DNA of 64,000 nucleotides. Source: a virus (taxonomy: Duplodnaviria; Caudoviricetes). The position numbers were made by a program, and so were the translations under genes. The stretch covers positions 96,001 to 160,000 of the IMG/VR virus record IMGVR_UViG_3300031420_000495; one strand, given 5' to 3'. Below the pieces are notes generated by a model. It saw nothing but the letters and a program-made list of their open reading frames with translations. It ran no database searches and was not told the origin of the DNA. Each line of letters starts with the position of its first letter. Position 1 is the stretch's first letter. Below are positions 15,937 to 46,942 of the stretch, in pieces.

Positions 15937-16108
15937 GTCCTAGAATTCCATTCTCTTCGATGTATTTGAAGAACCTGTCCTTTTCTTCTTGGGACATGCC
16001 CCATGTTGCCTGCCACATTGCCAACAGATTCAGGGCAATGAAGCCGACGAAACACACGGCGATTATACCCAGAATCTTGAGAACGTGAAAGAATATTTCG
16101 AGGCTCAT
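15914..16108 (-). CDS. Small membrane protein
   Basis: One TM helix. Confidence 0.55.
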   Translation of the reverse strand: MSLEIFFHVLKILGIIAVCFVGFIALNLLAMWQATWGMSQEEKDRFFKYIEENGILGHDDDFWP

Positions 16109-16677
16109 ACAAAGTTCAGTTCGTTGCGTGCAGCATCAAGTGCTTTGTTCAGCTCAGGCATGCGTCGGCCGGTTCCACCCTTGTCTGGATGATCTTTGGA
16201 AACACGGATGCGATACGCTTGCTTGATGACCTTTGGGTCCTTTTCGCTTTGTGAAAGACCCAACACTTCGCGCCATTCAGACTTAGGTTTGTTCTCTTCT
16301 TTCCGGCCGAACTTCTTGTTGCGCTCGTACGTCTCGTAATATCGAATCTGATCGAAATACGAGCTGTAGTAACGGTTGAGCCAGCGTATATCGTGTTTGC
16401 GGAACCATGACTTCTTGCGGATGAATTCGGTCAGACGATCATGCGAGTAGTTGACCTCGGCAGTCGTCTTGCAGCGATGGTTGTGATTGCCTTTGCTGAA
16501 CAAGTCTTCAGCATCGAGATTTGCTCGGAGCATCGGTTTCTTGAAGAGCATCTTGCCGATGAGCGGTCGGAGCAGTTCATCGTATTTCGTGTGCAGGGTT
16601 AGGCACACGAACATAAAGGTCGTTGCCAATAGCGGCAGGATGAACTTCAGAAACAGTTCGAGATAGATTTCGGTCAT
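16105..16677 (-). CDS. Membrane-anchored J-domain protein (DjlA-like topology)
   Basis: N-terminal TM; C-terminal WREVLGL..IKQAYR..HPDKGG. Confidence 0.85.
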   Translation of the reverse strand: MTEIYLELFLKFILPLLATTFMFVCLTLHTKYDELLRPLIGKMLFKKPMLRANLDAEDLFSKGNHNHRCKTTAEVNYSHDRLTEFIRKKSWFRKHDIRWLNRYYSSYFDQIRYYETYERNKKFGRKEENKPKSEWREVLGLSQSEKDPKVIKQAYRIRVSKDHPDKGGTGRRMPELNKALDAARNELNFV

Positions 16678-17499: not shown

Positions 17500-17685
17500 T
17501 TATGGTGATGGTGCTTCTTGCACTTTGAACAATGCGGACATTGGTGTCCACTTCTTCCAGGTGCCGTCGTCTTTATTTGCTGGCGTGACTTCAACCAGCT
17601 CTTGCGATTTGCCGCCTACGCCGGCACGCGCTGCTTTGCGGCCGGTCAGTTTGACTTCGTGTTCGCCCAGTACGTATGTGTCCAT
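17500..17685 (-). CDS. Hypothetical protein
   Basis: Start MDTYVL coupled to the kptA stop. Confidence 0.6.
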   Translation of the reverse strand: MDTYVLGEHEVKLTGRKAARAGVGGKSQELVEVTPANKDDGTWKKWTPMSALFKVQEAPSP

Positions 17686-18221
17686 TACTTGGTTCCCTTG
17701 ATATATTTCGGATCGACGTAATCGACAAGCCAAACGCCATTATCGGATTGAAGAAAATCGATGCCGTCCTTCAACATCGCAGGCGTGTCGATGATGACAA
17801 CCACTTCAGAACCTTTCCGCATGCCGACAGATGCAGCAGTGTCGACGTCGTCAGTGAGGTGGACGTGGTGGCGCTTCATCTTCTTGATGCCGGTCTTCAA
17901 CATCGATTCGTATCCGACTTTGTTTGTGCCGTGATACAGCTCGACTGGCGGAACTGCTTTCTTGAATGGGATCTTGACGCAATCCATGGAATGACCCTGG
18001 TTCGCACGGATCGATCCACGGTCAATTGTGTATCGACCTTTTTCGTCTTCCTTCACAATCTTTTCCAGGTCGGACTGTGTGAACTCTGGCCAACGCTTTT
18101 GCATTTGCGCAACGATGGTTTCGCACTTCACGTAGCCGGTCTTGCTGATCTGAATCTTCATTCTCACAGCGCCATGCCGAAGAATGAAGGACAGTTCTTT
18201 GCTTTGTTGGTCTTTGTTCAT
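17685..18221 (-). CDS. kptA: RNA 2'-phosphotransferase Tpt1/KptA
   Basis: LSFILRHG, KGRY, IRANQGHS, LYHGT, MKRHHVHL, SDNGVWL motifs. Confidence 0.93.
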   Translation of the reverse strand: MNKDQQSKELSFILRHGAVRMKIQISKTGYVKCETIVAQMQKRWPEFTQSDLEKIVKEDEKGRYTIDRGSIRANQGHSMDCVKIPFKKAVPPVELYHGTNKVGYESMLKTGIKKMKRHHVHLTDDVDTAASVGMRKGSEVVVIIDTPAMLKDGIDFLQSDNGVWLVDYVDPKYIKGTK

Positions 18222-18222
18222 T

Positions 18223-18447
18223 TCAATCTCTTACCTGGGCAATCTCAATCGCTTGAGTTATCATTTCAATCGCGAAGTCAGATGCCAAGCTGGAGTGAAC
18301 GCATTCATCACGAATTTCTTCCAGCTCGGTCTTGACGACTTCATTCGTGCAACCGATCAGACGTTTTATCTTGGCGGTCATTGTACTATCGATCTGCGCG
18401 TCGGGTGCTTGTGATAGTGTCGTTAAAAGTGGGTCCAGTCTACTCAT
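18223..18447 (-). CDS. Hypothetical protein
   Basis: Operon packing. Confidence 0.55.
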   Translation of the reverse strand: MSRLDPLLTTLSQAPDAQIDSTMTAKIKRLIGCTNEVVKTELEEIRDECVHSSLASDFAIEMITQAIEIAQVRD

Positions 18448-19055
18448 ACTTCCAGGGCTACGTTGGCAAGCGCTCGCATATTGCGAGCGGTCTCAAGTGT
18501 GATGAGCGCGTCATCCAGTGCGTTGTGCGAACCATCTCGCACGATGCCGGTGAAGAACTCAAACACGTCATTCGATCGATATTTACCGATCAACATGAAA
18601 CCTGTGCCAGACGTTTCCAGCTTGACGTGGTGAATCTTCAGCTCAACGCCAAAGTCACGTGCCAGTTGCTGGGTGAAGCAGATGTCGAAGTCGACGTTGT
18701 GGCCGAGGAACATGATCTTGCTTTCCGTGCCGATGTAGCGCAAGATGAGGTCGAGAAGATCAGTCAGACCTTCTTCACGCGACACACCATTGGCTGCGAG
18801 GTATTCACGGGACAGGCCGTGAATCTTCTCTGCACCGTCGGTCCACTTGTACTTCGTGTCATCGAACTGGAGTTCGCGATACAAGGTTTCGACTGGCTCG
18901 AACGTTTCCGTGTCGAAGATGATCGCACCGTATGCGATGCCCTGGTAGTCGATTGTACTGTCTCCGCCGAAGTTGGAGCCAGTTGTTTCCCAGTCGATCG
19001 CCAGGCCGTATTTGCCTGGATGAACGCGGGAGTATGAGGTTTTTGCCATCATCAT
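18444..19055 (-). CDS. DEDDh (DnaQ-like) 3'-5' exonuclease
   Basis: AIDWETTG, GHNVDFD, HNALDDA. Confidence 0.88.
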   Translation of the reverse strand: MMMAKTSYSRVHPGKYGLAIDWETTGSNFGGDSTIDYQGIAYGAIIFDTETFEPVETLYRELQFDDTKYKWTDGAEKIHGLSREYLAANGVSREEGLTDLLDLILRYIGTESKIMFLGHNVDFDICFTQQLARDFGVELKIHHVKLETSGTGFMLIGKYRSNDVFEFFTGIVRDGSHNALDDALITLETARNMRALANVALEV

Positions 19056-19079
19056 GATTGTGATATAAATCCTATAAAT

Positions 19080-19301
19080 TTAAGAGTATGCGCCTACGCA
19101 TTGCCCGCTGACACGCGCAGAAGCTTTTAGCTCTTCTACAATGTACTCAGCATGTTCGAAGCTGAGTGCATAAATGTAGGTGCTAAATTTCCCATCTGCT
19201 GTATCGTAGTCAACAGAAAATAGATTCCATGTGCGCCCGTCAACTTTAACTGACAATGGTTGTGGAATTCCAGGCAATTTGTTAGGTTCGTTAGTATCCA
19301 C
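19080..19301 (-). CDS. Hypothetical protein (AT-richer than neighbours)
   Basis: GTG start, MDTNEPNK.. Confidence 0.5.
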   Translation of the reverse strand: MDTNEPNKLPGIPQPLSVKVDGRTWNLFSVDYDTADGKFSTYIYALSFEHAEYIVEELKASARVSGQCVGAYS

Positions 19302-19911
19302 GTACAGCTTTCGAAATCCAGTGGTAAGATTCTTCCACGCGGTCTTCAACCGACAGGGACTTGATCTTCTTGTAGGGTATGTTGCGTGGATGCACTTCTT
19401 CGAAGAAGCGATCCATCTGCGTAGAGACGAAATCAATGTGTCGTTGATCAGCGCGATGTGGGTCCGCCTGGAATCGAACGTGCGGCATTGATGGCAGGAT
19501 CAAATTGCCGGAATACACTTTCTGATTTTCAGAGCAGAGTTTGACGTAGTCCATGAGGAAACGGATTGCTTCACCCAGTTCCCATTTGCCGGAGTCGACC
19601 AGCTCCCACGTCCAAAGTTGTGTGTAGGTAACGATGTCTGCGAATGTGCGCTCGGTCATGATGATGTCCACATCCTTGCGCTCGATGTTTTCCAGTTCGC
19701 GAACGTACTTGACGTCTCGCACTTTTGCCTGGAAAGCCATCATCGTTTCTGGGCTTTCCATCACATTCGACAGCGAGTCCCAGCCAAGTTGTTTTTGTAC
19801 TTCGCGGGAGACTTTGAAATCGTCCACGACGATTCCTTTGTCTTTCAACCCTTCAAGGAGTGTTGTCTTGCCACCACCCTGTGGACCGCTTAATCCGATC
19901 AGTCTAGCCAT
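19291..19911 (-). CDS. P-loop nucleotide kinase (thymidylate/dNMP kinase-like)
   Basis: GPQGGGKTT and IMTERT motifs. Confidence 0.75.
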   Translation of the reverse strand: MARLIGLSGPQGGGKTTLLEGLKDKGIVVDDFKVSREVQKQLGWDSLSNVMESPETMMAFQAKVRDVKYVRELENIERKDVDIIMTERTFADIVTYTQLWTWELVDSGKWELGEAIRFLMDYVKLCSENQKVYSGNLILPSMPHVRFQADPHRADQRHIDFVSTQMDRFFEEVHPRNIPYKKIKSLSVEDRVEESYHWISKAVRGY

Positions 19912-20997: not shown

Positions 20998-21405
20998 TTA
21001 CAGCAGCCGGTTGCAGCGCACCATCTCGTAGTGACAGCGAGTAACGATGTCGATTGAATACGCGGTGACATCGATTTTTTCCCGATGGAAAAACCAATAC
21101 ATTGCGTCCATGCTTGCATGCAAGTCTGCCAGAAGAAATTCTTCGACACCGCGTCTACCGAGCACGCGTTCCTCTCCCTTCTTCCATCGACCGATTTCGT
21201 CCACCAGCATACGTGGAATCGATCCCAGGTCTTTCACTGATTGTTTCAGTTCCCGATGCTTCAGCTCGATCGCTTTCGATACGGCGGGATTCCGGGTTGC
21301 ATACAGCTGTGCCGCTTCGAGTAGAATGTTGACTTGTGACAACATAGTCAACATCGCCCGTTCAGCCTGATTGATCAGGCTCTCGCGCATATCCGTGTCG
21401 TCCAT
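20998..21405 (-). CDS. Hypothetical protein
   Basis: GGAG RBS; TAAATA at about 21433. Confidence 0.65.
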   Translation of the reverse strand: MDDTDMRESLINQAERAMLTMLSQVNILLEAAQLYATRNPAVSKAIELKHRELKQSVKDLGSIPRMLVDEIGRWKKGEERVLGRRGVEEFLLADLHASMDAMYWFFHREKIDVTAYSIDIVTRCHYEMVRCNRLL

Positions 21406-21440: not shown

Positions 21441-21605
21441 TTAGTTTCGCGGCCAGAACTTGTGGACGTAGAAGACGATCGTGGCGATGACGATACCCGT
21501 GATGATGATCGACAGGATCGCAGCGACCTTGACGACGGCGAAGAAGATCGCCAACGCAACTGCTGTTGCCAGCAGAGCGTAGAATGTGATTTTCAGCTTT
21601 TCCAT
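21441..21605 (-). CDS. Small membrane protein (not in ORF track)
   Basis: Manual translation MEKLKITFYALLATAVALAIFFAVVKVAAILSIIITGIVIATIVFYVHKFWPRN. Confidence 0.65.
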   Translation of the reverse strand: MEKLKITFYALLATAVALAIFFAVVKVAAILSIIITGIVIATIVFYVHKFWPRN

Positions 21606-21608
21606 GTT

Positions 21609-22448
21609 TTACCCTTTGTTGTTGAAGCGCGAACGCTCTTGCATCCGTTCCTCGAGTGTCAGGTGCCGGCCAGTGCGTTCGGTGTAGTCCGCGGCCGGAT
21701 CGTAGTGGGTCGTCTGCTCGATGCTGGACTTGCGGCCGATTGCAGTGGCTCGCATTGTATCCATTTCGTGAATGACTTCTTCTTCTTCCTCGGCGCTGTA
21801 TTTGCCGTATTCATCGTCAGGCACACCGAACCGGGTGTTGACGTACGAGATGACGTGCTGCACAGTGAAGAGGCGTTCAGCATCGCGATCCGAGATTTCG
21901 AACTCGAACTCGTCTTCGACGGCCATGCACAGCTCGACCAGGTCCAGCGAGTCGGCGCCGAGGTCTTCCACTAGTCGCGCATCACGCACGACATCGCTTC
22001 GTGCCAGGCCAAGTTGCTCCTGGATGATCTTCATGCATCGTTGCGTGATGTCATGAGATTCGCCAGTCGGTTTGGCAGTTTCGGATGCGGTCTCGTCTTC
22101 TTGGGCCTGTGCTGCGATGCGAGCTTGGTCGCCGCTCTGCACCGTAGCCCACTTCGAGTTCTTGCGTTCGAACTCGGACAGGAACAGTTCCAGCACTTGC
22201 TTCTTGGAAAGTTCCGGATGCGCGTCGACCAGGATGGCCAGTGCACATTGTACCACGTCGGCGACTTCGCCGGACAGCGGTTCCTTCATCACTTTGTGCG
22301 TGATGTAGCCTTGATGGATGTTGACACACTCGGCGAGTTCGCCGACTTCTTCCATCAGCTTGCCCAGCTTGGCGCCGAGTGGTTTGATGTCGGTACCGGA
22401 CAGACGATGGACATCGCCGAATGATTGTGCGAACGTTTGTGTTTTCAT
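21609..22448 (-). CDS. MazG-like NTP pyrophosphohydrolase fused to acyl carrier protein (ACP)
   Basis: KLMEEVGELAE..EVADV (MazG); IIQEQLG..LVEDLGADSLDLVELCMAVEDEFEFEISDRDAERLFTVQHVISYV (ACP, DSL serine). Confidence 0.9.
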   Translation of the reverse strand: MKTQTFAQSFGDVHRLSGTDIKPLGAKLGKLMEEVGELAECVNIHQGYITHKVMKEPLSGEVADVVQCALAILVDAHPELSKKQVLELFLSEFERKNSKWATVQSGDQARIAAQAQEDETASETAKPTGESHDITQRCMKIIQEQLGLARSDVVRDARLVEDLGADSLDLVELCMAVEDEFEFEISDRDAERLFTVQHVISYVNTRFGVPDDEYGKYSAEEEEEVIHEMDTMRATAIGRKSSIEQTTHYDPAADYTERTGRHLTLEERMQERSRFNNKG

Positions 22449-22684
22449 AGTTGTCGTGTTTTGTTTTGAATGTCGTAGACGACCCGCATCAGTTCATAAT
22501 GCTGGTTGGTTTGAATGTTGTGGATCGTCACTTGATTGCCCTTCAGCTGCAGCAGCATCCAGTGGATCGCGAATACGATCAGCATGATTCCGACGAATCC
22601 GATGACGGCAATGCCGACTCCGGAAATCAGATAGATGACGTACGCGAGCAGTGCTGCGCCGACGGTTGCGGGTATGAATGGCAT
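22445..22684 (-). CDS. Membrane protein
   Basis: Two TM helices. Confidence 0.6.
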   Translation of the reverse strand: MPFIPATVGAALLAYVIYLISGVGIAVIGFVGIMLIVFAIHWMLLQLKGNQVTIHNIQTNQHYELMRVVYDIQNKTRQL

Positions 22685-24491: not shown

Positions 24492-26003
24492 TTAGGCGAT
24501 GTTGGCCAGTGCGATACGCTTCCAGATACGTTCTTCACGACCGCTGTTTGCGACTTGCACGATGTTCAGCAGCGAGCGAGTCGTGATTTCGTTGGCCATG
24601 TCGCGGTTCTCGTACAAGAAATCGTAGGCTTTCTGCTTGACTTCCATCGAGACACCCGGAGCAAAATCATCGCTCGGCAAAATCTGACGCATACGCTCGA
24701 ACGTTTCTTCGATCGTCAGCTCGATGTCAGCACGCAGCGAGCGGCTGATCAGCGGTTGCGGGAATTCTTCCGACGACACGTTCGAGATGAAGATCACGCG
24801 GCCTTCGAACAAGAAGCGCTTCGGCAGTCCGCTGTTGTCGGTGCCTTCGACATTCCACGTGATCCAACGATCTTCATCGCTGTCCAGTGCTGCTTTCAGA
24901 ATGTTCGCGCCGACTTCGTTTTTCCACGCTGCATCACAGTCATCGAGCACGACCAGCTTGCGGCGGTTTTCGAACAGCATGCGGAACAGGCCCTTTGCCG
25001 ACGAATAGCCTTTCACATAGTGGTAGTCGCCGTCAAGTTCCGGAGCCAACTGCATGTCGGTCGTGTCCATGGTGTGATACCGTTCTGCCGGAATCTGGAA
25101 CACGGTCTTCATGATCTTGCACCATTCTTTACCGTGGCCAGCTTTCACTTTCAGCGATTTAGGGAAGAGGATCGACTGAATGTGGTGGGCCATTTCGTGC
25201 GGCACGACGATGTCGTAGTATTCTTCCGGATTCTGCACAGCCAGCTTGATGTTGAACTCGTACTTGTTCAGGCCAGTCGTGAAGCGGCCGCCGCAGACGC
25301 GATCGCTCAGTTCTTTCGAAGTGTGCAGGCTCGTGAAGTCGACCTTGCTCCAGGTCAGCTCCAGTTCGTCTTCTTCTTCGTCGTCTTCATCATCTTCCAG
25401 CTCAGGCACGTCTTTCTTTTTCAGAGGCTTGATCGGCGGATGTTCTTTGTAGTATGCTTCAGCTTGACGCTTGCATTCTTTCATGCGACGCAGAATGTTG
25501 TCGGCGACGACTTGTTCTTCCGGCGTCAACGTGTACGCGATCTTCTCTGCTTCTTCAGTCGACAGCAGACCACGTTCTTTGAGTTTTTGTTTGGTGTGGA
25601 AGGTTTTGCCGAGCGAGCCGTCGCCGGTGATAATCAGCGAACGAATGCCGCTGTCAACGTCCGCGACCAGATCGACGCATTCGTCGAGCAGTTCGTAACG
25701 TTCAGCAACCGGCAGCAGATTGTTCGGCTTCAGACGAACACGCTCGCCAGCCACGAACTTCGGCGACGGAGCGAAGTTTGCCGGAGCGCCGACAGCAGGT
25801 TTCTTCGGTTCAGCAGCGGGGACGTTGTCGAAGTCGGTCACGCCGAGTTCAAGAGCACGGGCGCATTCGCCAGTGCGGAGACGTTTGATAACGTACTTGC
25901 GCGAGTTCGGACCGCCTTTGGATGCGATCAGAGTTTCGCCTTCATACTGAGCAGACCAAGTCGAGGTGGCTTCGTCGTAGCAGAGAGTAGCAAGTTTCGT
26001 CAT
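24492..26003 (-). CDS. AAA+ ATPase with an inserted SprT-like zinc metalloprotease domain
   Basis: Walker A GDGSLGKT; VVPHEMAHH..GHGKEWCKIM (SprT); Walker B LVVLDDCD; FEGRVIFISN; SRS arginine finger. Confidence 0.85.
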   Translation of the reverse strand: MTKLATLCYDEATSTWSAQYEGETLIASKGGPNSRKYVIKRLRTGECARALELGVTDFDNVPAAEPKKPAVGAPANFAPSPKFVAGERVRLKPNNLLPVAERYELLDECVDLVADVDSGIRSLIITGDGSLGKTFHTKQKLKERGLLSTEEAEKIAYTLTPEEQVVADNILRRMKECKRQAEAYYKEHPPIKPLKKKDVPELEDDEDDEEEDELELTWSKVDFTSLHTSKELSDRVCGGRFTTGLNKYEFNIKLAVQNPEEYYDIVVPHEMAHHIQSILFPKSLKVKAGHGKEWCKIMKTVFQIPAERYHTMDTTDMQLAPELDGDYHYVKGYSSAKGLFRMLFENRRKLVVLDDCDAAWKNEVGANILKAALDSDEDRWITWNVEGTDNSGLPKRFLFEGRVIFISNVSSEEFPQPLISRSLRADIELTIEETFERMRQILPSDDFAPGVSMEVKQKAYDFLYENRDMANEITTRSLLNIVQVANSGREERIWKRIALANIA

Positions 26004-45853: not shown

Positions 45854-46942
45854 TTACACCGCCATATCGAGTTTGATGGATTCTTGTGGATCGTAGTCAA
45901 CGAGTGCGTGGATGTCGTCCATGCGGAACCCGTCGATTTCGGTGATGCTCGTGTTCAGCGACAGCTTCGGCGGCATCGATGGAACGCGCTCGAGTTGTTG
46001 CTCTGCACCTTCCAGGTGATTCTTGTAGATGTGCGTGTCGCCCAGGTTCATGATGAGACGGCCGACAGACAGGTTGCAGACTTGCGCGAGCATGTGAGTC
46101 AGTAGAGCGTAGGACGCAATGTTGAACGGCAGACCGAGCATCGTGTCGATCGAACGCATGTACACGCTGCAGGACAGACGACCTTTCTCGACGAAGAACT
46201 GTGCCATCATATGGCAAGGTGGCAAAGCCATCTTGTCGATTTCACCGACGTTGAATGCGGTGATCAGCATCCGACGATCGGTTGGATTTTCTTTCAGTTT
46301 CTTGACCAGCTCGGCAACTTGGTCGACGGCCGAACGTTCGTAAACGTCCATGCTCATGATATTAGATTCAGCTTTGTTCAGCGTGTATTTCGGCCAGTGT
46401 CGCCATTGGAATCCGTAAATGTGACCAACGTGTCCTGGATAGTTTGCCTTTGGTTTCCAGTAGTCTGCATTCGCGTTATCGGTCCAGATTGTTTTCTTCG
46501 AATCATCGCGAGTCCCATGAAGTATTTCGCACAGGCGACGTTCATCGTCCGATCCTTCGAGGAACCAGATCAGTTCAGACTTGACGGCTTTCCACGCCAG
46601 CTTCTTCGTGGTGACTGCTGGAAAACCTTTCTGCAGGTCGATGTCCAGGTGCTTGCCGAAAATTGCACGGGTACCCACGCCGGTACGGTCGATGCGATCA
46701 TCGCCTTCTTCCAGGATTTCGCGGATGAGGTCGAGGTACTGCCATTCCCACGTATCGCTACGTGACTCGAACAGACCCGGCATTGCGGTTTCGAGCTGAT
46801 CGATCAGGCCGGCGAACATGTTGTTCAGTGCACTACCGTTGCCATGCTCACCTTCGCGAGCAGCGAAGGCAGCAGACAGTTCTTCGGCTTCTTGCATCGC
46901 AGCAATGGTTGTTTCATTCGGCACTTTGTTTTCTTCAGACAT
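45854..46942 (-). CDS. thyA: Thymidylate synthase
   Basis: DRTGVGT, YGFQWR, ALPPCH, MRSID..LGLPFNIASY, DTHIY. Confidence 0.97.
   Translation of the reverse strand: MSEENKVPNETTIAAMQEAEELSAAFAAREGEHGNGSALNNMFAGLIDQLETAMPGLFESRSDTWEWQYLDLIREILEEGDDRIDRTGVGTRAIFGKHLDIDLQKGFPAVTTKKLAWKAVKSELIWFLEGSDDERRLCEILHGTRDDSKKTIWTDNANADYWKPKANYPGHVGHIYGFQWRHWPKYTLNKAESNIMSMDVYERSAVDQVAELVKKLKENPTDRRMLITAFNVGEIDKMALPPCHMMAQFFVEKGRLSCSVYMRSIDTMLGLPFNIASYALLTHMLAQVCNLSVGRLIMNLGDTHIYKNHLEGAEQQLERVPSMPPKLSLNTSITEIDGFRMDDIHALVDYDPQESIKLDMAV

Follow-up and report, generated by a model that had tools for sequence, protein, structure and literature searches.

We report a phage protein, P0001, in which a MazG-like domain, a complete acyl carrier protein (ACP) and a conserved C-terminal motif are joined on a single polypeptide. 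Its open reading frame (ORF) lies at 21609..22448, on the minus strand, of a 64,000-nucleotide stretch (the window) that spans positions 96,001 to 160,000 of the IMG/VR virus record IMGVR_UViG_3300031420_000495 (Duplodnaviria; Caudoviricetes). Translation is uninterrupted through 279 codons and a stop, in the order MazG-like domain, linker, ACP, linker and C-terminal motif. The original prediction, drawn from the letters of the window, had described one continuous 279-aa ORF with the motifs EEVGE (residues 33-37), EVAD (61-64) and GADSLD (164-169; Ser167 codon at 21948-21950), and each of these is found where it was placed. Judged by sequence comparison, what is new here appears to be a conserved domain architecture that combines two known families with two uncharacterized C-terminal modules, which we call tail and X. 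We tentatively propose that the MazG core is the enzyme, and that the ACP is a host-primed cassette acting as an adaptor or sensor that couples this enzyme to the host ACP network.

The N-terminal domain is a putative MazG-like pyrophosphohydrolase

Profiles and structure assign residues 1-105 (22134..22448, minus strand) to the MazG-like, all-alpha nucleoside triphosphate (NTP) pyrophosphohydrolases. The N-terminal domain is matched by phrog_1247, annotated as "MazG-like pyrophosphatase" (E 3.4e-12), and when a profile of the family was compared with PDB it retrieved YpjD of Bacillus subtilis (2gta; E 0.003) as well as 5ie9 and 1vmg. The AlphaFold2 (AF2) model of the domain, predicted with a local confidence (pLDDT) above 93, aligns over residues 2-96 with the MazG protein of S. 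solfataricus (1vmg; 81/83 residues aligned) at a Z-score of 9.8, although helical bundles may reach middling Z-scores by chance. For the MazG-like homologue P0036, the 13 best PDB matches are all MazG, HisE, RS21-C6 or MazZ proteins, and the ESM-Atlas neighbors found by features and structure all belong to MazG, PRA-PH or dUTPase_2 clusters, with TM-scores of 0.63-0.80.

The metal-binding motif EExxE...ExxD, aligned to that of YpjD, is complete, and its four acidic residues (E34, E37, E61 and D64) never vary. In its first half, EEVGE (22338..22352, minus strand), which aligns to EELGE of YpjD, G36 is invariant together with the two glutamates; in its second half, EVAD (22257..22268, minus strand), A63 is invariant as well. 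The alignments also reveal a conserved segment in the last helix of the domain, KNSKW (residues 96-100; 22149..22163, minus strand), with K96, K99 and W100 invariant.

The prediction of a MazG-type domain therefore holds for the phrog_1247 match, the fold and the metal motif, but not for the Pfam MazG model: PF03819 gives P0001 a sub-threshold score (11.3 bits versus a threshold of 22; E 0.44), and a PF03819 search of the whole phage record returned no match at E<=1. We nevertheless accept the domain as a probable, catalytically competent MazG-like NTP pyrophosphohydrolase and a remote homologue of the known enzymes, because the phrog_1247 match, the PDB profile matches, the similarity of the model to 1vmg, the matches of P0036, the Atlas neighbors and the invariant metal ligands all point to this assignment.

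The central domain is an AcpP-type acyl carrier

Residues 130-208 (21825..22061, minus strand) form an AcpP-type acyl carrier domain, identified with TIGR00517, an alignment to AcpP and the AF2 model. The domain scores well above the cut-offs of TIGR00517 (88.1 bits versus 70.45), NF002148 (93.3 bits versus 71) and PF00550 (39.3 bits versus 20.8; E 7.8e-10), and a HMMER alignment to AcpP of E. coli shows 40/73 identical residues (55%). Its model adopts the four-helix ACP fold with pLDDT above 90, superposes on E. coli AcpP (1l0h; Foldseek) with a root-mean-square deviation of 0.6 Å, a target TM-score of 0.93 and 56% identity over 72 residues, and reaches a Z-score of 14.8 to 4ihf_G. An AcpP-like domain that is complete and retains its phosphopantetheine serine, as originally predicted, is thus borne out: Ser167, the attachment serine of the DSLD motif (codon at 21948..21950, minus strand), is invariant in 20/20 aligned homologues. 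The full set of invariant positions among these 20 homologues comprises R137, D166, S167, L168, D169, E172, M175, E178, D179, E184, D187, A190 and Y202, which are equivalent to R6, D35, S36, L37, D38, E41, M44, E47, E48, E53, D56, A59 and Y71 of the E. coli protein. The domain has an isoelectric point (pI) of 4.4, similar to the linkers.

The ACP of P0001 is internal to a 279-aa protein and is not a free-standing partner of type II fatty acid synthesis. Across the 257-kb record we found no match to a phosphopantetheinyl transferase (PPTase; PF01648), a ketosynthase (PF00109) or an AMP-ligase (PF00501), and no second carrier domain (PF00550); since the phage record holds no detectable PPTase, any priming of the ACP would need the host AcpS. 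When bacterial genomes were scanned for the ACP domain in a pattern-limited search, the best match was 51% identical and nothing emerged on origin or host.

A third conserved module lies at the C terminus

Mean pairwise identity among homologues is 0.62 for the MazG-like domain, 0.15 for linker 1, 0.53 for the ACP, 0.09 for linker 2 and 0.72 for the tail. P0001 is thus made of three constrained modules and two free linkers, identity being high in the former and low in the latter. Linker 1 (residues 106-129; 22062..22133, minus strand) ranges from 7 to 58 aa among homologues, with pLDDT 61-79, and linker 2 (residues 209-246; 21711..21824, minus strand) from 2 to 54 aa, with pLDDT 52-65.

The original prediction had the protein end in an acidic tail. 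This description suits linker 2, which contains 11 D/E versus 4 K/R, but not what follows it, a conserved motif of mixed charge that had been overlooked as a module of its own. The motif, with the consensus DPAADYTERTGRHLSLEERMQERS (residues 247-275), occupies 21612..21710 (minus strand) together with the last 4 residues of the protein. Two short predicted helices (251-259 and 265-278) flank the invariant G260, and the pLDDT is about 82. The motif also occurs in P0023 and P0024, two orthologues that have no ACP. Outside the fusion family, no instance was found in the phage's own genome, in the ESM Atlas or among 5.8 billion proteins, the last of these searches being limited by shared words. 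A predicted complex of the C-terminal peptide with two copies of the MazG-like domain scored 0.00, which argues neither for nor against binding.

The fusion recurs in metagenomic relatives in two classes

A search of 5.8 billion proteins recovered 19 full-length homologues of P0001, with 42-62% identity and all of metagenomic origin, and the same MazG-ACP architecture is present in more than 25 independent metagenome proteins. The stretch itself was matched at 0.99 in two phyllosphere-metagenome runs. These two observations dispose of the possibility, raised with the original prediction, that the fusion is an assembly chimera. The domain-architecture search for MazG plus a phosphopantetheine-binding domain that had been suggested alongside it finds the fusion again in metagenomic relatives, where it falls into two classes. 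The belief that such a protein had not been described also appears correct. None of 50,697 GenBank phage records covers at least 80% of P0001, no viral UniProt model in BFVD matches both domains well, and a full-text literature search found no description of a MazG-ACP fusion; source databases name the fusion homologues only "acyl carrier protein".

Exhaustive comparison of an N-terminal domain profile with 1.84 billion representatives gave 568 matches, which are mostly stand-alone proteins of 100-130 aa. Among the multi-domain proteins, Type 1 has the architecture MazG-[ACP]-tail and includes 21 members with the ACP and two, P0023 and P0024, without it. Type 2, a sister class with the architecture MazG-[ACP]-X, includes 5 members with the ACP and about 6 without (alignment A3: P0020, P0022, P0036-P0039, P0041, P0044, P0045, P0050 and P0053). 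Here the tail is replaced by X, a conserved domain of about 90 aa (IRKHP..QPTGKR...GW...FLTFR...EA..YW) with five predicted strands and one helix; X has no Pfam or PHROG match, and a structure search gave only weak Tudor- or WYL-like matches (probability <=0.54).

In a tree of MazG domains, all proteins of the fusion classes fall in one clade with a Shimodaira-Hasegawa-like approximate likelihood ratio test (SH-aLRT) support of 95, within which the presence of the ACP requires at least 2 gains or losses, and 4 by parsimony. In a tree of ACP domains, monophyly of the 26 fused ACPs could not be rejected (approximately unbiased test, p-AU 0.74), and imposing it gave the better tree. The simplest history suggested by these trees would be that an AcpP-like cassette was inserted once, into the linker of a protein made of MazG and a C-terminal module, and was then lost repeatedly. 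The contig of the ACP-less P0024 has the same gene order as the fusion contigs, and the nearest cultured phage, with 44% identity in PolB, is the Ralstonia jumbo phage RsoM2USA. On the evidence of alignments and synteny, the ACP is an optional cassette, accessory to a chassis of MazG and C-terminal module, because it is absent both from syntenic orthologues and from this nearest cultured relative.

One further metagenome protein, P0028 (258 aa), fuses a STAS domain to a C-terminal AcpP-like domain and so mirrors the YchM-STAS/ACP complex of E. coli; a partner of ACP can therefore become fused to ACP.

MazG-like and ACP genes also occur as an adjacent pair

A scan of IMG/VR identified a split form of the architecture in IMGVR_UViG_2786546475_000015, a complete 166-kb phage genome with terminal repeats. 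At L099:2854-3861, a 150-aa MazG-like gene is followed, after 10 nt, by a 181-aa ACP gene, for which a separate ribosome-binding site (AGGA) is present. In this second gene product, the N-terminal half is an ACP (58 bits to the family ACP model; PF00550, 21.4 bits) that keeps the DSL motif and sits on a long branch of the ACP tree (2.29); the C-terminal half, of about 95 aa, is unassigned. No match to a PPTase (PF01648) was found in this complete genome. The association of MazG-like and ACP domains thus exists both fused and split, the two being separate adjacent genes in this phage.

The ACP cassette may couple the enzyme to the host ACP network

In the mechanism that we tentatively favor, the MazG core would be the working enzyme, a nucleotide-pool hydrolase encoded within a block of phage replication and nucleotide-metabolism genes. 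The host AcpS would phosphopantetheinylate the ACP cassette, and host proteins that are clients of ACP would recognize it through the conserved helix II and the DSLD motif. Through the cassette, the location or activity of the enzyme would be linked to lipid status and to the ACP network of the host; the cassette would not be a carrier for phage fatty-acid synthesis. Candidate clients include SpoT, fatty acid synthesis (FAS) enzymes, AcpS, PlsB, MukB, IscS and others; both this list and the role of helix II follow Angelini et al. (2012; PMC3340395).

Several observations weigh against such coupling. Host ACP is very abundant (PMC3340395) and competes with a minor ACP copy for clients. That some orthologues have lost the cassette could equally well mean that one polypeptide carries two unrelated functions. 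Five cultured phages encode stand-alone ACPs and none has a MazG-like neighbor, nor do three sampled stand-alone MazG-like genes have an ACP neighbor, so that the MazG-ACP link is specific to a clade. To these points can be added the sub-threshold Pfam score of the MazG-like domain, and the incompleteness of the phage record (about 71% complete), which leaves room for a PPTase or a lipid enzyme elsewhere in the genome.

We consider it rather unlikely that the chain simply carries two independent functions, those of a nucleotide hydrolase and of an ACP serving to decoy or absorb AcpS, malonyl groups or acyl groups of the host. The ACP would then disturb host lipid synthesis, and fusion would serve co-expression only. 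The presence of the cassette in some orthologues and its absence from others speak for this explanation, as do the long, variable and predicted disordered linkers and the stand-alone ACP genes common in other large phages, which do not lie beside MazG-like genes. It sits less easily with the position of the cassette, which is always internal, between MazG and the C-terminal module, in two classes and down to about 40% identity, or with the adjacency of MazG-like and ACP genes in a distant, complete phage. A decoy must moreover outcompete the very abundant host ACP (PMC3340395).

The original prediction had put forward one host protein in particular, suggesting that the ACP may dock the enzyme on SpoT. 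The ACP would bind the TGS/C-terminal region of host SpoT, and MazG would lower (p)ppGpp or its precursors, thereby blunting the stringent response. We regard this as improbable. The interaction of ACP with SpoT is established in E. coli, where it occurs via ACP helix II, and mutations of E. coli ACP at L42, V43, M44, F50, I54 and T64 abolish SpoT binding (Angelini et al., 2012; PMC3340395). With E. coli as the reference, 5/6 of these contact positions are identical in P0001 (L173, M175, F181, I185 and T195), V43 being replaced by C174. It is also in keeping with docking that ACP carrying an N-terminal fusion still bound SpoT in two-hybrid assays (PMC3340395), and that the likely hosts are plant-associated proteobacteria. 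However, FAS enzymes are bound through this helix II as well, and their binding, too, is affected by these mutations (PMC3340395); because the residues serve both kinds of partner, their conservation is necessary but not specific. The enzymatic half of the proposal meets a further difficulty: the one phage MazG tested for hydrolysis of magic-spot nucleotides, from a cyanophage, was unable to perform it (Rihtman et al., 2019; PMC6850273), and the MazG clade of P0001 consists mostly of stand-alone phage proteins of 100-130 aa that fall below the Pfam MazG threshold. One SpoT-binding-defective mutant of ACP had a C-terminal extension together with T64A, and the ACP of P0001 has a C-terminal extension of 70 aa. 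Finally, orthologues without the ACP exist, no RelA_SpoT-family gene was found in the phage record, and the neighborhood of P0001 contains no RelA/SpoT homologue (RSH)-related gene or other hint of alarmone metabolism or a stringent response.

More improbable again is chemistry in cis, in which the serine of the tethered carrier, or its phosphopantetheine thiol, would swing into the MazG-type active site. The protein would then be a nucleotide-dependent enzyme that loads or modifies its own carrier, either by self-priming from coenzyme A or by nucleotidylylating or acylating the arm. A carrier held between flexible linkers has the swinging-arm layout of type I synthases, the linkage of MazG and ACP is kept both in fusions and in adjacent genes, and no PPTase was found either in the genome of the window or in the complete phage with the split pair. 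Yet host AcpS suffices to explain priming, and ACP-less orthologues retain identical catalytic residues, from which it follows that the MazG core works without the ACP. We know of no precedent for such chemistry in the MazG fold.

The least probable explanation is that the ACP is an unmodified acidic spacer or solubility module replacing the acidic linker that the ACP-less P0023 and P0024 have at the same place; its pI of 4.4 resembles that of the linkers, but neither the serine, the rest of the DSLD motif nor the helix II residues used for recognition vary among 20 homologues with a domain identity of about 53%. A spacer would not be so constrained, and the score of the domain exceeds the AcpP equivalog cut-off.

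Source phage and gene neighborhood

The source record (257,406 bases, about 71% complete; hereafter G000) is that of an uncultured RsoM2USA-like jumbo phage of leaf surfaces. IMG/VR labels it "provirus". The PolB that is 44% identical to that of the lytic RsoM2USA, the lack of a bacterial flank in the window and the presence of the same fusion protein on a 375-kb contig suggest instead that G000 is a fragment of a lytic jumbo phage.

The P0001 gene belongs to a tightly packed operon, since the stop codon of the ORF upstream (79 aa, hydrophobic; 22445..22684, minus strand) overlaps its start codon (ATGA), and only 3 nt separate its own stop from the next ORF downstream. The latter encodes a hydrophobic 54-aa protein (21441..21605, minus strand), and an ORF of 52-55 aa is found at the same place in all related contigs. 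The gene after it (135 aa; 20998..21405, minus strand), matched in position by ORFs of 134-135 aa in relatives, is predicted to be helical and gave no match in Pfam and PHROG searches; these two results rule it out as an AcpS-like PPTase.

Metagenome contigs share a common gene order: a SprT-like gene, small ORFs, the fusion, a hydrophobic ORF of about 53 aa, an ORF of about 135 aa and an AAA_28 kinase, followed by an RNase_T exonuclease, Tpt1, Cpn10, a DsbA-like gene and PolB. Synteny of PolB, Tpt1, the RNase_T exonuclease, the AAA_28 kinase and the SprT-like gene extends to RsoM2USA. In the window, a block at 17685-19911 (minus strand) encodes a Tpt1/KptA RNA 2'-phosphotransferase (E 1.7e-47), a DnaQ/RNase_T-like exonuclease and an AAA_28 (NadR-like) P-loop kinase. 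This block is syntenic in all related contigs, with the addition of a CYTH protein in one relative and of a nucleoside 2-deoxyribosyltransferase-like gene in another. Upstream of the fusion, a 503-aa protein (24492-26003, minus strand) combines a SprT-like metalloprotease domain (residues 227-310) with a phrog_1250 C-terminal region, and its gene is kept at this side of the fusion in relatives. A 190-aa ORF (16105-16677, minus strand) has a weak, sub-threshold C-terminal match to the J-domain of DnaJ (E 4.8e-4), and a Cpn10 (GroES-like) gene lies near the same locus in relatives; the two may be phage chaperone accessories.

By Pfam and PHROG annotation, the genes around P0001 have nucleic-acid functions. 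The phage also encodes two thymidylate-synthase-family genes, at 45854-46942 of the window (minus strand) and, outside it, at G000:C1:166726-167448; one is canonical (318 bits) and the other divergent (86 bits). The divergent enzyme could be a pyrimidine hydroxymethylase, hinting at modified DNA. A role of the MazG core in nucleotide-pool management would fit, because its gene neighbors act on nucleic acids and thymidylate synthases of both kinds are present; an analogy is offered by the dCTPase/dUTPase-type enzymes that phages with modified DNA encode.

Implications of the family

ACP genes are scattered through large phages, and we found no function assigned to them in the literature searched. 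In the fusion family, a phage ACP has a partner that is physically fixed to it, namely a nucleotide pyrophosphohydrolase with a conserved C-terminal module, and this partnership is seen by fusion as well as by gene adjacency. The role of the phage ACP becomes directly testable, because the family supplies orthologues with and without the cassette that constitute natural controls. Should the cassette indeed connect the enzyme, as an adaptor or sensor, with the ACP network of the host (SpoT, FAS, MukB and others), it would represent a new way of taking over the host, in which nucleotide pools are coupled to lipid status. Chemistry in cis, if it occurred, would be new enzymology that could let a phage run an ACP without a canonical PPTase or ligase, and it would explain why the two domains are fused in one phage clade and encoded by adjacent genes in a distant, complete phage that lacks a detectable PPTase.

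Comparison with known systems

P0001 has in common with YpjD (2gta), S. solfataricus MazG (1vmg), the integron protein iMazG (2q5z), MazZ of cyanophage S-2L (7ody) and mouse RS21-C6/DCTPP1 (2a3q, 2oie) a core of four helices (about 100 aa), together with the EExxE...ExxD motif and a basic segment, K..KW. Its sequence similarity to these small MazG-like enzymes is remote, and it adds to them an ACP and a C-terminal motif. A closer counterpart is encoded in the same neighborhood of RsoM2USA: RsoM2USA_476 (AVH85403.1, annotated as a hypothetical protein) has an orthologous MazG-like domain, 32.5% identical over residues 5-118, but is a stand-alone protein of 121 aa, without the ACP and without the C-terminal motif.

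Stand-alone phage ACPs (phrog_5934; GAP32 gp159, RP13 ORF197, BCSR5, phiXF1_111 and Bajun) are AcpP-like and 36-52% identical to the ACP of P0001; they are encoded by separate genes without a MazG-like neighbor, whereas the ACP of P0001 is fused. GAP32 is the only one of these five phages with a member of the P0001 MazG clade, 27 kb away from its ACP. Genes of about 130-147 aa that directly follow the ACPs of phiXF1, BCSR5 and RP13 were considered as PPTases and as relatives of the tail or X modules, and were rejected for want of a Pfam PPTase match and of BLAST similarity, respectively.

Known partnerships of ACP offer another parallel. The ACP-SpoT and ACP-STAS (YchM) interactions of E. coli depend on ACP helix II, which is conserved in P0001 (PMC3340395). 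With E. coli AcpP (TIGR00517, PF00550), P0001 shares the four-helix fold, the serine motif DSLD and an acidic surface on helix II. E. coli AcpP is, however, a free protein of 8-10 kDa, while the ACP of P0001 is flanked by an enzyme domain (105 aa) and a C-terminal extension (70 aa) and, unlike AcpP, is phage-encoded without accompanying FAS genes.

An in-line, tethered carrier is the established layout of type I fatty acid synthases, polyketide synthases and nonribosomal peptide synthetases, in which, as in P0001, the carrier lies between flexible and poorly conserved linkers. P0001 differs from these assemblies in that its carrier has a single catalytic neighbor, a predicted nucleotide pyrophosphohydrolase, and that synthase, transferase and adenylation domains are absent in cis.

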